A stretch of 64,000 nt of DNA, from the NCBI RefSeq assembly GCF_988243305.1, contig NZ_OZ547136.1, one strand, 5' to 3'. Of the stretch, positions 2,630 through 18,805 are shown piece after piece. The notes beneath the pieces were generated by a model that made no database searches, was not told the origin of the DNA, and saw nothing but the letters and a program-made list of their open reading frames with translations. Within the stretch, counting starts at the first letter, position 1. Each line of letters starts with the position of its first letter. Position numbers and translations under genes: made by a program.

Positions 2630-3149
2630 TCAGCAACCCCGGTATCAGTTCATCCAGCGCGGCTGCTTTGTTCATGGCTTTGATGATATCCCGTTTCAGG
2701 AAATCAACATGTCGGTTTTCCAGTTCCGGAAAACGCCGCTGCACCGACAGGGGGATCCCGTCGAGAATACTGGCAATTTCACCTGCGATCCGCGACAGCA
2801 CGAAAGTACAGAATGCGGTTTCCACCACTTCAGCGGAGTCTCTGGCATTCTTCAGTTCCTGTGCGTCGGCCTGCGCACGCGTAAGTCGATGGCGTTCGTA
2901 CTCAATAGTCCCTGGCTGGAGATCTGCCTCGCTGGCCTGCCGCAGTTCTTCAACCTCCCGGCGCAGCTTTTCGTTCTCAATTTCAGCATCCCTTTCGGCA
3001 TACCATTTTATAACGGCAGCAGAGTCATAAAGCACCTCATTACCCTTGCCACCGCCTCGCAGAACGGGCATTCCCTGTTCCTGCCAGTTCTGAATGGTAC
3101 GGATACTCGCACCGAAAATGTCAGCCAGCTGCTTTTTGTTGACTTCCAT
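2604..3149 (-). CDS. nu1: Terminase small subunit Nu1
   Basis: 181-aa ORF MEVNKKQLADIFGASIRTIQNWQEQGMPVLRGGGKGNEVLYD..., matches lambda Nu1; overlaps start of A as in lambda. Confidence 0.95.
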
Positions 3150-3732: not shown

Positions 3733-4094
3733 ACATCCCGGTTTCTTCCACCATCGCACCGGAAAAGCAACTATGAGGGTAACCCTGCGTCTGTCAGCAC
3801 AGTAAAACCCGGTGTGCATCGTTTTTGATTATTCCCGCACACTCACGCAGAAGGAATTCCCCGTCGGGCTACGGTCATGGTTAATGCGGGAATACGGCGA
3901 CGATACAGCGCAGCTAAAAGGGTAATGGACAGAAAGAGCGGTTTATTTCATTCCACAGGATTCTGAGTGTCCCCAACTTCCTCCAATAGTCTGAGCGTAC
4001 ACCTATATAGTTTTAATTTTCATCAATCCATTTAACTATCGTTTAATTGTTGTCACATAGGATTCCGCCGTTTTTAACAATGCAGGATAATAAG

Positions 4095-6237: not shown

Positions 6238-6387
6238 TTCTTGCTCCTCAATCCATTAAAATCTCAGCAATAGTAGTTGTTACGTCCGCCACTGGCTCAG
6301 AGCTGACTATCCGCTAAATTTAGCTCAGTGCCGTAGCTGTGTCAGAACAAACCTAAGCCGAAACCGTTTATTACAAAACAATAAATA

Positions 6388-10748: not shown

Positions 10749-10915
10749 CGGTTGTCTCTGCTGGCGCAGCAGGTGCCAGTTGTTCAGGCTGGCGTGCGAA
10801 TTGTAAACCAGAATGCCAGGAAAAAACAAAACCCGCCGAAGCGGGTTACGTGCGGGTGCGTTGAGGATGCCTGACACATCAGAGGTGGCGAGGGATTTCT
10901 CCCTCGCCGGGTCTC

Positions 10916-11071
10916 TTACTCCTCAGGTTCGTAAACTGTGAAGACAGCGACCTCCGTCTGGCCGGTTCGGATTCGTACCTCGCAGAGGTCTTTCCTCGTT
11001 ACCAGTGCCGTCACTATGACGGTTAAACAGATGACGATCAGGGCGATTAACATCGCCTTTTGCTGCTTCAT
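10916..11071 (-). CDS. hok: Hok/Gef family type I toxin (HokD/RelF-like)
   Basis: 51-aa product MKQQKAMLIALIVICLTVIVTALVTRKDLCEVRIRTGQTEVAVFTVYEPEE; single TM helix and conserved Cys; track ORF carries an in-frame 19-codon upstream extension. Confidence 0.9.
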   Translation of the reverse strand: MKQQKAMLIALIVICLTVIVTALVTRKDLCEVRIRTGQTEVAVFTVYEPEE

Positions 11072-11791
11072 AGCCTGCTTCTCCTTGCCTTTCGGCACGT
11101 AAGAGGCTAACCTAGATTTGCCGTTCATAGATTGAGCCTCAGATTAATGTTAAGCGTCTTGCAGGACGCGTAATGTTAACTGGGGCTTTTCTCTATCTGC
11201 CTTTGGTGTTCATGCCTGAGGCAGATAGCCTCAAGCACCCGCAGCAATTCTACTTAACTCCCGTCACCTCGCCAATATAAAATCAATCAGAAAGGCGATC
11301 CATAAGAACAACAGCAAGACAATAAATTGCCATTACAGCCGCAATAGCTAGCGCACATTTGAGAACCAGCACGACAACCTCCTGTATTGGACGTACACCA
11401 GTTCTGATAAATATGAGGCTGTCTCATCATTGATTCAATATAACTATTGGGTATAGTTTCTGTGATTTTGTTCTGTAGAAATGGAACACAACAACCAGTC
11501 ACCACCAGCACTTCTTTAAATACGCCAAGTCCGACGCAAGCTAACCTTCTAGTCCGCTTTGAGCGAGGAGCGGACCAAACCCGGCCAACTGACTCTTAAA
11601 GGGGCCGCAGGAATTTTTCGTCTGAACTTTCGAAGCTCCTCTCCCTGAAGACAGAAAACTTCTGTGTGCTGTGGGAATATTGAATCTTTGCATTAGATAT
11701 AAATAATTTTATCCCGCCTGAAGTTTACATTATTTTATTTATCTGTTTTTCTAAATCAGACTGCACTCCTTACTTAAATCAGGAGCCAGTC

Positions 11792-12991
11792 ATGCCATTT
11801 GTTATTTATGTGTTTACTATCAGTGCCTTTGCGCTCGGACTCGCGGAATTTGTCCCCATTGGGCTGACAGACGTTATGGCTCAGGGGTTGTGTGTGGGTG
11901 TGGAGCAGACCGGGGCAGCGGTTACAACCTATGCACTGGGGGCAACGTTCGCGGCACCCGTACTGTCTGCGCTGACAGCAAGCTGGAGCCGGAAAAATGT
12001 AATGCTTACAACTGCCGTTGTGTTTACTGCCGGTAGTCTGGCGGCCGCGTTTGCAGCCACATTACCTCAGCTCCTGTTAGCGCGGTTCATTGCTGGTCTG
12101 GGACACGGCCTGTTTCTGGCTGCGGCATCCAGTACCGCAGCTCGTCTTGCTGGACCGGGTAAAGCAGGCAGAGCGGTGGCTGTGGTATTTGGTGGCTTTA
12201 CTCTGGCGATGGCAATCGGCGTACCGCTGAGTACATGGTTGGGGGGGGTGGTCTCATGGCGTCCAGTTCTCGGCGCTATTGCCGCTTTTGGCGCGTTCGG
12301 ATTCCTTGGACTGTTGTTCGGTATGAAAGATCCCGTACGCAGCGTGCCCGGTGAACATAGTGACTCAGCAATGCAGAATATCGGCATGCTGTTTAACCGT
12401 AAGTTGCTGGCCGGCGCGCTGGTTACGGTGCTGGCGTATGCAGGCTCGTTTACGGCTTACACCTTTATCGCACCTATTCTGACGCAGGTGACAGGGGTTA
12501 CCGGAGCAAAGGTGAGTCTGTTTATGCTGGTTTACGGTATTACAGCTGCGGTAGGTAATATTCTTGGTGGGAAACTTACCGACAGCATGGGGGTTAATCG
12601 TGCCAATATACTCATCATTAGCGGCATTGTTGTTGTCGTGCTTGGTATGTGGCTGCTGTCATCCTCACCGGTGAGCATGGGCATTCTGGTTGCGCTGCTG
12701 GGTATGGTGACATTTGCCGCAGTGCCGGCACTGCAGGCCCGTCTGATTGGTGTCGCTGAGCAACATGCTCCTCATGCGCATGGTGTTGCTGCCGGCCTGA
12801 ATATTGCGGGCTTCAACTCAGGTATAGCGCTGGGATCAGTACTGGGCAGCATTACTATAAGCCACGCCGGTATCGTGTATACCGGTATCAGCGGTGCGAT
12901 TGTTTCTCTGCTCGGCCTGCTGTTGCTGCTTGCACAAATCCGTCGCAGCCACAGTCGTAAATTTCAACAGGTTAAAATCGTAGGCCAGTAA
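11792..12991 (+). CDS. MFS transporter (12-TM)
   Basis: 399-aa highly hydrophobic ORF MPFVIYVFTISAFALGLAEFVPIGLTDVMAQ... with MFS-like repeat organisation. Confidence 0.7.
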   Translation: MPFVIYVFTISAFALGLAEFVPIGLTDVMAQGLCVGVEQTGAAVTTYALGATFAAPVLSALTASWSRKNVMLTTAVVFTAGSLAAAFAATLPQLLLARFIAGLGHGLFLAAASSTAARLAGPGKAGRAVAVVFGGFTLAMAIGVPLSTWLGGVVSWRPVLGAIAAFGAFGFLGLLFGMKDPVRSVPGEHSDSAMQNIGMLFNRKLLAGALVTVLAYAGSFTAYTFIAPILTQVTGVTGAKVSLFMLVYGITAAVGNILGGKLTDSMGVNRANILIISGIVVVVLGMWLLSSSPVSMGILVALLGMVTFAAVPALQARLIGVAEQHAPHAHGVAAGLNIAGFNSGIALGSVLGSITISHAGIVYTGISGAIVSLLGLLLLLAQIRRSHSRKFQQVKIVGQ

Positions 12992-13002
12992 AGGGAGGTT
13001 AT

Positions 13003-13695
13003 ATGCTTACCCGTGAAAATATGCTTAATGGCACATTTGTCAGGGTGCATGAAGCGCTGCTCCCGGCGAATATGCTCTGGGACGCTGAAAAAATACGCGC
13101 ATCAATGAACTCTACTCTGGAGGAGCGCCCGACGGGTGCTCCTTTCTGGATATTTGCCTACGGGTCATTGATGTGGAATCCCGTGCTGGCAATTGAAGAA
13201 ATGCAACGGGCCCGTCTGAAAGGATGGCAGCGCAGTTTCTGCATTCGTTTGATATCCGGACGAGCGACTCCTGATGTCCCCGGCAGGATGTTATCGCTCG
13301 ACGAAGGTGGAATTACCGAAGGTATTGCGTTCAGACTGCCGGAATCGACTCTTATTAATGAGCTGGAAATTGTCTGGACGCGCGAGATGATAACCGGTCT
13401 TTACCGTCCGGTCTGGGCAGACGTTTCGCTAGGAAACGGTGAGGAAATTCAGGCGCTGGCTTTCGTATCAGACAGACTGCATCCGCATTATGAACAGGAC
13501 AATCTTACAGCGACCGTAGCGTTGAGCATCGCATCTGCCCGTGGAGACATTGGCACGAATGCAGATTATGTATGGAAACTGCAGGCCACTCTGGGTGCGT
13601 TGGGAATACGGGATGATTACGTGAGTGAACTGGCCCTTGCTCTGCATGAGGCTCCCTGTAACGATAAACTTCATCAGCGAGGCGCTTCACTATGA
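13003..13695 (+). CDS. ChaC-like gamma-glutamylcyclotransferase family protein
   Basis: 230-aa ORF with FWIFAYGSLMWNP motif and overall similarity to ChaC. Confidence 0.7.
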   Translation: MLTRENMLNGTFVRVHEALLPANMLWDAEKIRASMNSTLEERPTGAPFWIFAYGSLMWNPVLAIEEMQRARLKGWQRSFCIRLISGRATPDVPGRMLSLDEGGITEGIAFRLPESTLINELEIVWTREMITGLYRPVWADVSLGNGEEIQALAFVSDRLHPHYEQDNLTATVALSIASARGDIGTNADYVWKLQATLGALGIRDDYVSELALALHEAPCNDKLHQRGASL

Positions 13696-14573
13696 GCCAT
13701 CTGAGCCATCTGCGAACGTTTCTTGAGGCCTATCGCTCTGGCTCCTTTTCAAAGGCGGCAGAACTACTGGGCATCACTCAGCCCGCGGCGTCACAGCATA
13801 TCCAGTCTCTTGAGACTCTGGTTGGTAAGCGTCTGTTTATCAGGCAGGCCAGAGGCGTGACGGCAACCGAAGCTGCGGATGAGCTTGCCCGCTCAGTTTC
13901 ACCCTTCATTGATGGTCTGGAAGAAAAGCTGTCCTCTTTCCGGTCAGGCTCTGTACACGGGGGAACAATTAATCTGGCAGGACCGCCAGATTTTATTCAT
14001 TCCCGGCTTGGGACAGTAATGGCTCCACTAATGAAGGAGGGGTATCGCCTACGCTTTCATACCGGCAATAAGCAACGTATTTATTCCCTTTTGCATGACG
14101 GGAGCGCCGATCTCGCTGTTACCGCATCTATGCCTGATGACCGTCTGTACGGCTATGCACATCTACTGACTGAACGCATGCTCCTTGTTCATGCTCCCGC
14201 CATGTCAGAGATCATCGGATCAGAACCTGGTGCTGAAACGCTTGCCTCATTACCGCTGATTGCTTATGACGAAGAGTTGCCACTGATTAGAGCGCTCTGG
14301 GCCTCCATGTTTCAGAGAGCCCCTGAGATGCAGGCTACATTCACCATTCCGGATTTACGTATTATCCGCGACTTGGTCTGTGACGGCCACGGGTGGACAG
14401 TGCTGCCGGATTATCACTGTGACAATGACCTGAAAAGTGGTCGCCTGATTTCAGTGACACCTGCAGACCTCGCTCCGACTAATCATCTTTATCTGGTCTG
14501 GAACAAAAGGACGGCTAATAACAGCCGAACCGCCTATGTTCGGGATTACATTCTTAAAACGTTTCCGCGTTGA
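13692..14573 (+). CDS. LysR-family transcriptional regulator
   Basis: 293-aa ORF MSHLSHLRTFLEAYRSGSFSKAAELLGITQPAASQHIQSLE... (LysR HTH), overlaps ChaC-like stop by 4 nt. Confidence 0.85.
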   Translation: MSHLSHLRTFLEAYRSGSFSKAAELLGITQPAASQHIQSLETLVGKRLFIRQARGVTATEAADELARSVSPFIDGLEEKLSSFRSGSVHGGTINLAGPPDFIHSRLGTVMAPLMKEGYRLRFHTGNKQRIYSLLHDGSADLAVTASMPDDRLYGYAHLLTERMLLVHAPAMSEIIGSEPGAETLASLPLIAYDEELPLIRALWASMFQRAPEMQATFTIPDLRIIRDLVCDGHGWTVLPDYHCDNDLKSGRLISVTPADLAPTNHLYLVWNKRTANNSRTAYVRDYILKTFPR

Positions 14574-14625
14574 TGTTTGAAACGGATGATTGGCGATGTG
14601 TATCATAAGTTACGTATGTCCGCTT

Positions 14626-14641
14626 CTGGCACAAAGCAGAC
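14626..14641 (+). repeat. 16-17 bp direct repeat, copy 1 (ctggcacaaagcagac), flanking the membrane-protein/BCCT module
   Basis: Near-identical copy cttggcacaaagcggac at 18298-18314. Confidence 0.5.
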
Positions 14642-14703
14642 GCCCACTCTCACGCGAATGCTTTGCCCTTGACTTGCCAACAACCGTATCGCTTGCTCCG
14701 CAA

Positions 14704-15996
14704 CTATGGTTTTTTATTAGAACCTTCGCCACTAAATAAATTATAATAAATTGATTTTATTAGATATCTGTCAGAATCTATATGGTCAGCACGAGTAGCA
14801 TGCTCTAATGTTTCAAATGCTAGGGTTTGTGCGGCTTCAGCAAAAATTCCAGGCCAACCCTTACTCAGCATCGACAGTCCTTTAAGTACCCTTATCTGAA
14901 TTTCCCTCATACTGGCACCATCGCGCGCAACAGGTGAGAAAAAGTCTTCAAGTAGATCGTTATTCTGAAGTGGTGCAACATGTACAGAAGGATATTTCAC
15001 TTCTATTTCATCAGATTTATTCTGCGCGTAAGCGGAAAGTATACGTACACCTCTGCCAATGACATCAATGGCGGTTCCAGGATCGTTCACTGCGGGGGAA
15101 AGGGCTCGGCAGGCTATTTCGGCCATGACGCTAAGACAAAATCGGGGGTCCTGAGCAAATGAACGTACATCCGAGACAATAATCGTCTCAAGTAAATCGG
15201 TGCTGATTGATGACTCCTGGCCCTGACTCAGGTACAAAACTGGCGTGGACGGATGTATGAAACTGCCCGGCTGCGCCACGAGGTATACATGACGGGGATC
15301 ATTGGTCAGCAGCTTGCTGAGTTTCACCATATCAACATATTCAACATAGCCAATCTTTTTCGGATAAACTGCAACCGTTCCTTTCGGCTGTTCATTGTTC
15401 TCAAGCCATGGATATCCGCCGAGACAGGGATTTCTTGCTCTCGCAATAAATGTTTCGATGGCCGCCTGTTCTACTTTTGCCGTTGTCTCACCAACCCTCC
15501 CCAGAGAGGTCAAATGCTGTATCCAGCGAAGCAATGTGATGAGGATTAAGGCAATGACAACCAGTGTTACAATGAATAAAATGACTCTCCCCCTTTCTCC
15601 ATAAGCTCCCATATTGAGGGCAATAATCCCTACCAGACTGAAGAGAAAAGAACCGATGAAGGTGGCCAGTACATTTTGTGTGGTGACGTCTTCAACAACT
15701 AAACGAGTAGCTCTGGGAGTCACATTAGTAGTGGCTGAACCGTAGGCTGTGACCATGATGCTCAGCGAAAATGTGGTCACTGCCAGCATACTCGATGCCA
15801 GTATGTTCAGAATGTTATCGACTGCTTCCGCACCAACCTTCACGGAAACCGACTCAGGTATCATTGATTTAAAAAGAATTGATAAAAGGGCCGTTATTAT
15901 TGCGACAATTGCGAATAACGTTGCCCTGAACCATAGTTTTTTAAATGTCTGCTTCAGCATCCATTTCCAGCGTGAAATCATTCTGCATTCCCTCAT
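14704..15996 (-). CDS. Polytopic inner-membrane protein, family uncertain (possibly DUF2254-like)
   Basis: 430-aa ORF with N-terminal TM helices and a soluble C-terminal region; start codon uncertain. Confidence 0.5.
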   Translation of the reverse strand: MRECRMISRWKWMLKQTFKKLWFRATLFAIVAIITALLSILFKSMIPESVSVKVGAEAVDNILNILASSMLAVTTFSLSIMVTAYGSATTNVTPRATRLVVEDVTTQNVLATFIGSFLFSLVGIIALNMGAYGERGRVILFIVTLVVIALILITLLRWIQHLTSLGRVGETTAKVEQAAIETFIARARNPCLGGYPWLENNEQPKGTVAVYPKKIGYVEYVDMVKLSKLLTNDPRHVYLVAQPGSFIHPSTPVLYLSQGQESSISTDLLETIIVSDVRSFAQDPRFCLSVMAEIACRALSPAVNDPGTAIDVIGRGVRILSAYAQNKSDEIEVKYPSVHVAPLQNNDLLEDFFSPVARDGASMREIQIRVLKGLSMLSKGWPGIFAEAAQTLAFETLEHATRADHIDSDRYLIKSIYYNLFSGEGSNKKP

Positions 15997-16044
15997 ATTG
16001 CAGCCGGGATAAATAAATGCCGCCTCTGTGGCGGCATGTTGCTG

Positions 16045-18048
16045 TTAACGAACCAGATGCAGGAAGTGCAGGTGTTTTTCGTACTGGTCCAGTATGTCAT
16101 TAATCAGCTGTTCCTGATTCCAGCCCATTACATCATAATTTTGGCCGCCCTCTTTGAGATAGACTTCAGCGCGATAATATCGATGTTGTTCACTCTGCTG
16201 CTCATCATTATCCAGCGCAGCGAGCGCGAAGGTCGGTGAGTTATACCCGCGAAGCCTCACTTCATATATATAATTCAGCTCGTTGCCCAAATCGACTTCA
16301 AGGCGAATACGATCCTCGGCGGCGTCACTGATGTGGCTTATCGTTCCCTGCTTGTTAAGTTCCTCCTGAACCAGCGTCATGGCGGGTTGGATAATGTCGT
16401 CCATAAAACGTTTCACAAGAGAGCGCTTCGGCAAATACGCGATATTGCGTAACCTTCTCTGCCAGGGAATTGGGTTACGTGCAGCCGTAGGAGCAATAGT
16501 CGCCATGCTAAGGCTTTCACGCTTGGTCAAATCCCGACGCAGGGCTTTTAACAGTCCGTATATGGATATTAATAAGATAACTGAGAAGGGCAATGCACTC
16601 GCTATCGTTACGGTTTGCAACGCACTCAGCCCCCCTGCGATCAGCAGGGCAATAGCAACAACGCCCATGAGCGATGCCCAGAAAATTCGCTGCCAGACGG
16701 GCGTGTTTGCCACCCCACCTGATGCCAGAGTATCCACAACCATTGCCCCCGAATCAGCAGACGTTACAAAGAAGACGATGACCATCGCCATTGCAATGAA
16801 TGACAGCACGGAAGAGAACGGGAAATGCTCCAGGAAATTAAACAGGGCAAGCGCAACATCCTGCTGAACGGTATTGGCGAGGTCAGTGGCGCCCTGGTTC
16901 ATGATGAGATAGATGGCGCTGTTTCCAAACACCGTCATCCACATGAGCGTAAAGCCGGCGGGAACAAACAACACGCCAGTCACGAACTCACGAATTGTCC
17001 TGCCGCGGGAAACGCGTGCAATGAACATACCTACAAACGGCGACCATGAAAGCCACCATCCCCAGTATAATAATGTCCAGCCCCCCAGCCAGTTGCTCGA
17101 CTTGGGTTCATACGCGTAAAGGTTGAACGTTTTACTCACCAGTTCCGACAGATAACCACCCGTATTTTCCACAAATGACTTCAGCAGAAGCACAGTGGGA
17201 CCCAGGCACAAGACCAGCGCCAGGAGCAACACCGCCAGGCCCAGATTAAGCTCAGACAGGATGCGTATTCCCTTGTCCAGGCCGGACACCACCGAAATCG
17301 TCGCTAACCCCGTGATGACCACGATCAAAATGACCTGTACCGTTTCATTGATGGGCACGCCGAAAAGATGGTTCAAACCGGCATTCACCTGCAATACACC
17401 GTAACCCAGTGATGTTGCAACGCCAAAGACAGTGCCTATCACGGCGAAGATATCAACCGCGTGGCCTATAGGCCCGTAAATGCGATCGCCGATAATGGGA
17501 TAGAGCGCAGAACGCAGCGTTAAAGGCAGACCGTGACGGTAACTGAAAAAGGCCAGAATCAGCGCCACGATGGCATAAATTGCCCATGCGTGCAGACCCC
17601 AGTGGAAGAACGTCAGGCGCATGGCTTCCTTCGCTGCCGCAACGGTCTCTGGAGTGCCGACAGGTGGCGAAAGATAATGCATCACAGGTTCGGCAACGCC
17701 AAAGAACATCAGGCCGATCCCCATCCCTGCCGAAAAAAGCATCGCGAACCAGGAGTGGTAGCTGAAATCAGGCTGCGCATGGTCTGGGCCCAGCTTTATA
17801 TCACCGTAACGTGAGAGTCCAAGGAACGTGACGCTCAGTAAAATCAGGGCCACAGCAAGTATGTAGAACCAGCTGGCATTCGTGAAGATTTGTTGCTGAA
17901 GTAGTTTAAAATTTTTGTCGGCGACATCCGGGAATACGGCGGCAAAGGCGACAAGAAGGAAAATTAGCAAAGCAGATGTAAAGAATACCGCTTTGTTAAT
18001 CTGGCTTGTAGACTTCTTTGGGGTTGTATCATTTTCACTCATAATCAT
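16045..18048 (-). CDS. BCCT-family transporter (BetT-like choline/betaine transporter paralog)
   Basis: 667-aa ORF with BCCT hallmarks ...WTLLYWGWWLSWSPFVGMFIARVSRGRTIREF... and a BetT-like C-terminal cytoplasmic extension. Confidence 0.8.
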   Translation of the reverse strand: MIMSENDTTPKKSTSQINKAVFFTSALLIFLLVAFAAVFPDVADKNFKLLQQQIFTNASWFYILAVALILLSVTFLGLSRYGDIKLGPDHAQPDFSYHSWFAMLFSAGMGIGLMFFGVAEPVMHYLSPPVGTPETVAAAKEAMRLTFFHWGLHAWAIYAIVALILAFFSYRHGLPLTLRSALYPIIGDRIYGPIGHAVDIFAVIGTVFGVATSLGYGVLQVNAGLNHLFGVPINETVQVILIVVITGLATISVVSGLDKGIRILSELNLGLAVLLLALVLCLGPTVLLLKSFVENTGGYLSELVSKTFNLYAYEPKSSNWLGGWTLLYWGWWLSWSPFVGMFIARVSRGRTIREFVTGVLFVPAGFTLMWMTVFGNSAIYLIMNQGATDLANTVQQDVALALFNFLEHFPFSSVLSFIAMAMVIVFFVTSADSGAMVVDTLASGGVANTPVWQRIFWASLMGVVAIALLIAGGLSALQTVTIASALPFSVILLISIYGLLKALRRDLTKRESLSMATIAPTAARNPIPWQRRLRNIAYLPKRSLVKRFMDDIIQPAMTLVQEELNKQGTISHISDAAEDRIRLEVDLGNELNYIYEVRLRGYNSPTFALAALDNDEQQSEQHRYYRAEVYLKEGGQNYDVMGWNQEQLINDILDQYEKHLHFLHLVR

Positions 18049-18297
18049 TTATTCCATTAATTAAATCCGCACTGGATAGAAGGTACTACCTCTCACAGAG
18101 TAGCAAAGTTCAACTGGCTATGCGGGGTTAATCGGAATGCATGGTGGAATGAGTGCCGATACAAATCATCCTATATTCTAAGGAGTTTTAAGTTACTCAG
18201 CCTGCCAATTACTGGGGCATTTAATTTGTATGATCTGTATCAAAGCTGGGATATAAGTTAAGTGAAGTATATTAGGCACGAATTACCAGCGTCTGCT

Positions 18298-18314
18298 CTT
18301 GGCACAAAGCGGAC
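18298..18314 (+). repeat. 16-17 bp direct repeat, copy 2 (cttggcacaaagcggac)
   Basis: Matches 14626-14641. Confidence 0.5.
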
Positions 18315-18382
18315 AACCACGCTAGCTCTACCCTGTGCCACAAAATGTCAATTTGCATCTGAACTAATGCACTTTAATCTCG

Positions 18383-18805
18383 TCACTTCAATAAATACCG
18401 AACATCCCCCTGATAAAACGACAATATGCGCTGCATAACTTCGCTCTTCCGGCACTCGCGACAGATTATGTTTAGGCGACTGTCGTAGCGACGTATTTCT
18501 CCGTCAGGTAATGACCAGATAAGGTCCGGATCAACCACAACCGGTTTCTTCAGCTTTGCCCTCGATAATTTTTTGCGGGCATTTTGCCAGTCTTTACGAG
18601 CCTGTTCAGACGGGAATAACCCGTAGCCAGAATTGTATACATCGCCACTGGCAACCAGCTCTCTGGCCAGAACGCTCATCAGATATCTTGTTGCCCCAGT
18701 TTTAGCTTCCAGTTGTCGTAACGTCTCGCGCCCACTCTGGCGTACGAGTTCAAGAACCTGCCCTTTAATTTTTTCCCGCTCTTCTTGTGTAAAAACTTTT
18801 GCCAC
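18383..18805 (-). CDS. Hypothetical replication-module protein (lambda P position)
   Basis: 140-aa ORF MAKVFTQEEREKIKGQVLELVRQSGRETLRQLEAKTGATRYLM...; immediately downstream of the initiator gene. Confidence 0.4.
   Translation of the reverse strand: MAKVFTQEEREKIKGQVLELVRQSGRETLRQLEAKTGATRYLMSVLARELVASGDVYNSGYGLFPSEQARKDWQNARKKLSRAKLKKPVVVDPDLIWSLPDGEIRRYDSRLNIICRECRKSEVMQRILSFYQGDVRYLLK

Follow-up and report, generated by a model that had tools for sequence, protein, structure and literature searches.

Direct repeats around a DUF2254-BCCT gene pair in a Qin-like prophage as probable recombination sites of exchangeable phage cassettes

How cargo genes are gained and lost in the variable loci of phages is still an open question in the field. 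It applies to a stretch of 64,000 nucleotides from contig NZ_OZ547136.1 (assembly GCF_988243305.1; hereafter the window), in which a DUF2254 membrane-protein gene and a BCCT transporter gene are enclosed by two near-identical short repeats. In E. coli NZ_LR882990.1, which matches the window at 100% identity, this DNA forms a Qin-like lambdoid prophage with ydfJ and rspB on its two sides. The original prediction, made from the sequence alone, had suggested that the repeats might be the scar of a recombination event or a feature of a target site, or might serve as a shared regulatory site. We conclude that they are probably (probability about 0.7) class B versions of a short site for recombination, which marks off cassettes of exchangeable cargo in the variable loci of temperate phages.

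The repeats and the cassette between them

Two near-identical strings were present where they had been predicted (CTGGCACAAAGCAGAC at 14626-14641 and CTTGGCACAAAGCGGAC at 18298-18314), with only the DUF2254 and BCCT genes, both on the minus strand, between them. The predicted distances of about 80 bp and 270 bp were close to those measured: the DUF2254 stop is 62 nt from the end of the left copy and the BCCT start is 243 nt from the right copy, which lies upstream of it. The similarity is longer than had been claimed, extending in direct orientation over 33 nt with 79% identity (14618-14650 versus 18291-18323). The complete 24-nt copies, GTCCGCTTCTGGCACAAAGCAGAC on the left and GTCTGCTCTTGGCACAAAGCGGAC on the right, are each imperfect palindromes (GTCCGCTT-CTGGCACA-AAGCAGAC and GTCTGCT-CTTGGCACA-AAGCGGAC, respectively), and the pair therefore also scores as an inverted repeat. 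The pattern GTCYGCT-N10-AGCRGAC had three exact matches in the window (11552, 14618 and 18291), compared with 0.00 expected from 100 dinucleotide-preserving shuffles. The third of these copies, overlooked in the original prediction, bounds a block of MFS, ChaC and LysR genes. A search with the 16-mer and 3 mismatches gave 4 matches versus 0.64 expected, a count that was reached in 1 of 100 shuffles and so leaves chance some room; given the full 24-nt pattern, and the same sequence at module boundaries in hundreds of loci, a chance match is nevertheless extremely improbable.

The site is built from two inverted arms, (AAY)GTCCGCTyy on one side and AAAGCGGAC(Rtt) on the other, with an asymmetric spacer of 6 nt between them. 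Two classes share the common arms GTCCGCT/AGCGGAC: class B, with the spacer TGGCAC, includes both repeat copies around the BCCT block, and class A carries TCGCTC (Table 1). Read from left to right, the locus comprises backbone, A(-) at 11552, the MFS-ChaC-LysR cassette (cassette 1), B(+) at 14618, the DUF2254-BCCT cassette, B(+) at 18291 and backbone again.

Table 1. Features of the variable locus and its flanks, in window coordinates
Feature	Position	Strand	Description
hokD toxin gene and sok antisense RNA	10916..11240	-	Backbone flank of variable locus, opposite to DUF977; annotation of the identical record and Rfam
Third copy, A-type site	11552..11575	-	Minus-strand reading GTCCGCTCC-TCGCTC-AAAGCGGAC; boundary of hokD/sok-side backbone and cassette 1
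Cassette 1	11576..14617	+	Bounded by A(-) and B(+), canonical geometry
MFS transporter	11792-12991		Cassette 1
ChaC-like gamma-glutamylcyclotransferase	13003-13695		Cassette 1
LysR regulator	13692-14573		Cassette 1
Left copy, B-type site	14618..14641	+	GTCCGCTTC-TGGCAC-AAAGCAGAC; junction of cassette 1 (LysR side) and DUF2254-BCCT cassette
BCCT cassette cargo	14642..18290	-	DUF2254 membrane protein, BCCT transporter and BCCT upstream region (18049-18290)
DUF2254 membrane protein	14704-15996	-	Pfam/NCBIfam matches
BCCT transporter, BetT subfamily	16045-18048	-	Pfam/NCBIfam matches
Right copy, B-type site	18291..18314	+	GTCTGCTCT-TGGCAC-AAAGCGGAC; junction of BCCT cassette and prophage backbone (DUF977 side)
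DUF977 gene, prophage replication module	18383..18805	-	Backbone flank of variable locus

The segment 14616-18315 recurred at 99.8% identity in NZ_AP023286.1, the chromosome of a Vietnamese pig E. coli, and on plasmids of the IncY, IncF and IncHI groups, where it belongs to the qnrS1 region; the hosts of these plasmids were E. coli, Shigella sonnei, Shigella flexneri, Klebsiella and Enterobacter. In every one of these settings homology ended at the two repeats. Five different left and three different right neighbours were read across all loci, and this comparison shows the BCCT block to be a separate unit, with at least that many different neighbours joined to it on each side. The joints always fell inside the site, with each arm remaining with the DNA of its side. 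On the left, the inner arm AAAGCAGACgcccactct was constant with the BCCT cassette and the outer arm varied among the five neighbours; on the right, the arm accagcGTCTGCTCT was constant with the cassette and the arm AAAGCGGACaaccacgc was constant beside DUF977 in many prophages with other cargo. Diverged copies of the block (89-94% identity) occurred in O104:H4 and ST131-type islands and on Klebsiella, Raoultella and Citrobacter plasmids, and retained decayed versions of the site where their ends were read.

A deletion bounded by such sites was found among the plasmids. The S. sonnei plasmid L005 equals the Enterobacter plasmid L006 minus a segment between two B sites, which holds an integrase gene and a 476-aa gene. 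The joint in L005 combines the left arm of one site with the right arm of the other, and the switch lies within TTGGCACA. Homology that stops at the repeats, arms that follow their flanks and this precise deletion all favour recombination among the readings offered originally. The shared regulatory site, by comparison, did not hold up, since dozens of cargo blocks that have nothing to do with one another are bounded by this motif, on phages, plasmids and chromosomes from many genera. The original prediction would also have been undone by a common genomic repeat unrelated to the module; the motif is indeed common, but its commonness marks cassette boundaries and not chance.

In the qnrS1 plasmids L004-L006, the conserved segment beside qnrS1/ISKpn19 is a piece of a phage-type cassette array (for example, L006 2249-9699). 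Its order in L006 is A, a 269-aa gene, B, the small integrase and 476-aa genes, B, DUF2254-BCCT, B and relB, and the integrase segment was lost from the S. sonnei plasmids by precise site-to-site deletion.

The repeats of the window fall between replication genes (replisome organizer and DUF977) and hokD/sok. Qin-like prophages of FY10, ECC-1470 and 29A20CPO013 share their backbone half-sites with the window ('accttctaGTCCGCTTTGAGCGA' towards hokD and 'TGGCACAAAGCGGACaaccacgc' towards DUF977), and 'accttctaGTCCGCTTTGAGCGA' is present in prophage L012 with other cargo. Between these half-sites the cargo of other prophages (L011, L012 and L013) is AbiH together with a 463-aa protein, a protein of 340 aa, or a set of four other blocks that includes a 200-aa integrase. 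DUF977 adjoins a B site in 38 loci. The window locus thus resembles the Z/fun locus of phage P2 in holding variable cargo at a fixed phage position bounded by repeats, and the DUF2254-BCCT genes are accessory prophage cargo, not core chromosome. Early rightward genes (a cro-like regulator, ydaT, the replisome organizer and DUF977) are carried on the minus strand of the window, and early transcription probably reaches the variable locus from the right. Beside hokD, sok was matched by Rfam at 11066-11240 with 111.7 bits.

Some further traces were seen in the same prophage. A possible fourth, degenerate site (GTCCGCCACTGGCTCAGAGCTGAC, 6284-6307) has two arm mismatches and the spacer TGGCTC, intermediate between A and B, and sits between two TolA-like genes in the lysis region. 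The backbone right after the right copy (18315-18345) reads AACCACGCTAGCTCTACC and then CCTGTGCCACAAAATG, which resembles a linker and then an inverted half-site in decay, and may be what is left of an old junction in the backbone of the phage. Just downstream of sok, an isrK-like Rfam match at 10826-10907 was below threshold (27.8 bits versus a gathering score of 50).

Spacer classes, arrangement and spread of the sites

When IMG/VR was scanned for TGGCACAAAGCRGAC, at least 120 exact-match stretches were obtained, and the upstream arm was present in 66 of 120 among the matches listed. The arrangement of the sites was tallied over all loci gathered at that stage. Most of the long inter-site gaps were A(-)..B(+) (56 of 76), 11 were direct B..B as around the BCCT block, and 5 were direct A..A. 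Every short gap (15 of 15) was a B followed by an inverted A, 12-18 nt apart; these B-to-A junctions measure about 66 nt and have a partly conserved linker, ..ACTGAGCTRAAG. The motif surrounds 59 distinct cargo segments with 86 protein clusters. Matches to models of anti-phage defence were obtained for five of 10 sampled cargo proteins (two of them retron-type reverse transcriptases, one a TIR protein, and the others PDC-S06 and PDC-S15), so that the transporter cargo of the window is atypical for the system.

The site has the layout of a simple tyrosine-recombinase core site, in which inverted binding arms enclose an asymmetric spacer of 6-8 nt where strands are exchanged; here the crossover lies in TTGGCACA and the arms segregate with their flanks. 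Its spread was examined by scanning one genome per species with the pattern GTCCGCTNNTGGCACANAGCGGAC, which returned at least 120 stretches. Exact 21-base matches to the B pattern, with three positions free, occurred in Alpha-, Beta- and Gammaproteobacteria. Among the matches listed were Enterobacterales (Pantoea, Erwinia, Mixta, Rahnella, Enterobacter, Citrobacter and Kosakonia), other Gammaproteobacteria (Pseudidiomarina, Neptuniibacter and Amphritea), Betaproteobacteria (Nitrosospira and another metagenome-assembled genome, MAG) and Alphaproteobacteria (many Hyphomicrobiales MAGs, Microvirga, Bradyrhizobium, Rhizobium, Rhodospirillum and Methyloceanibacter). The alpha- and betaproteobacterial loci that were read are direct-repeat arrays with a spacing of a few hundred to a few thousand bp. 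They hold the fullest form of the site, (G)AATGTCCGCTTT-TGGCAC-AAAGCGGACATT(C), with inverted arms of 12-13 nt around the 6-nt spacer, and further spacer classes on the same arms.

Integron-like arrays of sites in the same orientation were seen in L193, L172, L188, L182 and L149, which are Hyphomicrobiales, Nitrosospira, betaproteobacterial and Rhodospirillum MAGs. These loci contain clusters of 2-3 sites about 20 nt apart that have common arms and differing spacers (TGGCAC, CGGGGGT and TGACCC).

A candidate recombinase and the origin of the joints

Some arrays contain an integrase of 200 aa, in which the catalytic domain PF00589 is the only domain. It is weakly similar to the XerD, XerC and XerA models, and its R, HxxR, H and Y catalytic positions align with those of XerD. 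The family is more than 80% identical across many Gammaproteobacteria. In every copy examined, from E. coli, Proteus, Rahnella and marine contigs, a B-type site follows the stop by about 18 nt and an A-type site lies about 40-60 nt upstream of the start, and the arms that normally face the cargo point outward. Homologues with 55-62% identity, from a Hyphomicrobiales MAG and Amphritea, are flanked by sites with the same arms and other spacers; all homologues examined (55-100% identity) thus have same-arm sites on both sides. The integrase unit was present in about 770 of 5426 E. coli genomes, among which homology ends inside both spacers.

Two features of the integrase loci were noted in addition. 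A 12-bp inverted repeat, ACTCAAATCTCC...GGAGATTTGAGT, stands right before the integrase start (for example, L006 at about 3902-3940), is kept in E. coli and Rahnella, and may help to control the recombinase. Outside phages, the small integrase and its sites occur in chromosomal or integrative and conjugative element (ICE)-like variable regions of Proteus (L137-L141) and marine Gammaproteobacteria (L142-L146), where TIR, SIR2 and SMC-type genes and ars/cop metal-resistance blocks are neighbours. The system is therefore not restricted to phages.

From these comparisons we infer that the joints were made by conservative site-specific recombination between sites of the same spacer. The B site ending cassette 1 would be the target for a circle that carries DUF2254, BCCT and a single B site of its own, and the two direct B copies could excise the BCCT circle again. 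Such B x B excision would yield the circle junction ...accagcGTCTGCTCTTGGCACAAAGCAGACgcccac... and the empty site ...gttacgtatGTCCGCTTCTGGCACAAAGCGGACaaccacgc.... The A(-)..B(+) pattern would be expected from A x A or B x B integration of circles that carry cargo plus a junction. We propose, with less confidence, that the enzyme may be the conserved 200-aa catalytic-domain-only tyrosine recombinase; its pairing with the sites is suggested by gene position across taxa.

Several observations weigh against this explanation. The recombinase gene is absent from the 64-kb window, and for this reason the enzyme would have to act in trans. Among the matches listed, the integrase was found in only 4 of 120 site-bearing loci of other species, and the sites next to it have degenerate inner arms. 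The BCCT cassette is without the A site that most cassettes carry. Occupied and empty versions of the junction were sought, as the original prediction had suggested: the BCCT block was indeed found in other settings, but the predicted empty junction (the LysR cassette joined to DUF977, as after B x B excision) occurred in 0 of 5426 complete E. coli genomes. The evidence for recombination is all comparative, and crossovers in the most conserved part of the site would also be expected from short-homology recombination.

The last point leads to an alternative that we regard as unlikely, namely that the sites are conserved linkers at which general or phage homologous recombination (Red, RecET or RecA) swaps modules with no dedicated recombinase. 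It would account for joints at the unchanging centre of the site, which offers the longest identity, the window encodes no dedicated recombinase, and the roughly 66-nt inter-cassette junctions with their linker could suffice for phage recombinases. The identity offered by one site is however only about 24-32 nt. Passive homology moreover leaves unexplained the dyad-symmetric arms around an asymmetric 6-nt spacer, the discrete spacer classes on common arms, the exact 21-base matches across three proteobacterial classes and the constant linkage of the sites to a tyrosine recombinase gene. The A(-)..B(+) pairs that flank most cassettes are 24-nt imperfect inverted repeats, alike at 21 of 24 positions, and might be taken for the ends of a non-autonomous transposon (similar to a miniature inverted-repeat transposable element or a mobile insertion cassette) served by a transposase in trans. 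We consider this very improbable: the copies flanking BCCT are direct, target-site duplications were not seen at any junction read, the inter-cassette linkers are conserved, unlike random target DNA, and the arms segregate with their flanks, which is not expected of transposition. The sole associated enzyme, furthermore, is a tyrosine recombinase.

There is likewise little to be said for an operator of a BCCT-module regulator, or for an RNA hairpin or terminator that insulates the module. One copy does precede the BCCT start by about 245 nt, a TetR gene is found just past the degenerate left copy in the 94% version of O104:H4, and an 8-bp hairpin is formed by perfect versions of the site. The window copies, in contrast, fold no better than shuffles (z = 0.11 and -0.83), and arm positions 3 and 20 do not covary over 126 site contexts (Fisher p = 0.70 for B and 1.0 for A). 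Scans for T-runs or terminators and for promoters found nothing at the sites, and an Rfam search gave no match at them, only hok/sok nearby. A module-specific operator is excluded by the number of distinct cargo segments that the motif surrounds, and a TetR operator was rejected on the same ground, the motif not being specific to the BCCT module. Other candidates were also dropped. The mismatches between the arms, C.A in the left copy and T.G in the right, might be read as the product of two perfect palindromes that had formed hybrids, but this was dropped as evidence since covariation was missing. For attC-like folding, the 66-nt B-linker-A junction beats shuffles (z of about -3), yet it forms just two separate small hairpins and, again, its arms do not covary. 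A sigma-54 promoter, suggested by TGGCAC, has no TTGC at the right spacing as judged by eye. Site-specific recombination at a short site remains the explanation that we favour.

Relation to known systems and significance

The site family is already known from P2, where it was first noted at Z/fun. Nilsson, Karlsson and Haggard-Ljungquist (Mol Biol Evol, 2004) reportedly described inverted repeats on both sides of this variable locus in P2-like coliphages. These repeats enable the site-specific exchange of fun, according to the part of PMC8987985 that treats Nilsson 2004. When a 32-nt site probe was searched against isolated phages, it matched P2-like phages, including GenBank AJ512685 (the P2-EC67 Z-region) under the feature 'left inverted repeat'. 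In this record the 'left inverted repeat' has a B site (92-115) as its inner end, and the 'right inverted repeat' begins with an A site (1255-1278). In P2 itself (L136), B and A sites at 1408-1431 and 3006-3029 surround Z/fun between genes G and FI, and phage 899 has two cassettes plus a 66-nt junction at this locus. The window copies match exactly the pattern found in the P2-EC67 and P2 repeats and thus belong to the same sequence family; the idea put forward in PMC8987985, that repeats permit cargo to be exchanged site-specifically between phages and bacteria, applies to both. The window differs in that its prophage is lambdoid, with the locus between replication genes and hokD, and in that its cargo is a transporter pair, not an exclusion gene. 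Its BCCT-flanking copies are also direct B-B and not inverted repeats as in P2, whereas the cassette 1 pair, 11552(-)/14618(+), is inverted.

Integrons offer a second comparison. Both systems have promoter-poor cargo arrays, often with anti-phage genes, between imperfectly palindromic sites, a tyrosine recombinase, and cassettes that are predicted to move as circles. The site logos, however, are without RYYYAAC/GTTRRRY boxes, the arms do not covary, and the core site is of duplex type with 24-32 nt, whereas attC is a folded strand of 57-141 nt. Integrons are built on a fixed attI/Pc platform; here the 200-aa recombinase lies inside arrays between two sites, and the arrays are found in phage, ICE and plasmid backbones, with no integrase in the window.

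In layout the sites match those of Cre/lox, FLP/FRT and Xer/dif: a short asymmetric spacer separates inverted binding arms, and the fullest copies measure 12-13 + 6 + 12-13 nt. Spacer classes on common arms, and modules bounded by sites, are shared with heterospecific lox variants and with the pdif modules of Acinetobacter plasmids. The sequence is nevertheless unrelated to dif or lox, the matches of the recombinase to the XerD, XerC and XerA models are weak, and a spacer-dependent choice of partner is suggested here by sequence comparison. The GTCCGCT/AGCGGAC arms, compared by eye with E. coli dif, show no resemblance to it, and the two sites have only the arm-spacer-arm arrangement in common. 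The PeSL mobile regulatory cassettes of T4-type phages, reported by Arbiol et al. in 2010, are said to be units of a promoter and a stem-loop that act by homologous recombination. As in these and in the lambdoid 'moron' concept, short repeats flank novel open reading frames in hyperplastic phage regions and are proposed to drive shuffling; unlike PeSLs, the present sites show no signal of a promoter or terminator, and a tyrosine recombinase is linked to them.

In the full-text literature no description of the recombinase-site pair was found, although the original Nilsson 2004 and Odegrip 2006 accounts were not covered. There is likewise no published account that we could find, Nilsson 2004 itself not being covered, of the A/B arrangement rules, of the exact sites in Alpha-, Beta- and Gammaproteobacteria or of a 200-aa recombinase always flanked by sites. 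For the turnover of cargo in these loci, Rousset et al. (2022) speculated on cos ends and called for experiments, and a 2026 preprint on P2/P4 hotspot dynamics does not mention any repeats.

A wider view may be put forward tentatively, and we hold it to be possible without thinking it the likelier outcome. The sites could form an exchange system that resembles integrons and is distinct from them, in which the 200-aa tyrosine recombinase would recognise a single arm pair and recombine only sites of the same spacer (TGGCAC, TCGCTC, TGACCC, CGGGGGT and others), a natural recombinase-mediated cassette exchange that acts across Alpha-, Beta- and Gammaproteobacteria. Cargo between two differing spacer classes could then be swapped among phages, ICEs, plasmids and chromosomes, and would be neither inverted nor lost. 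A short site, rules for the arrangement of its copies and a candidate recombinase turn the question of cargo turnover into a simple plasmid assay. The DUF2254-BCCT block beside qnrS1 on widely spread resistance plasmids is a phage-type cassette that still has its sites. If true, same-spacer exchange would supply the missing mechanism by which defence hotspots of P2-like and lambdoid phages are turned over.

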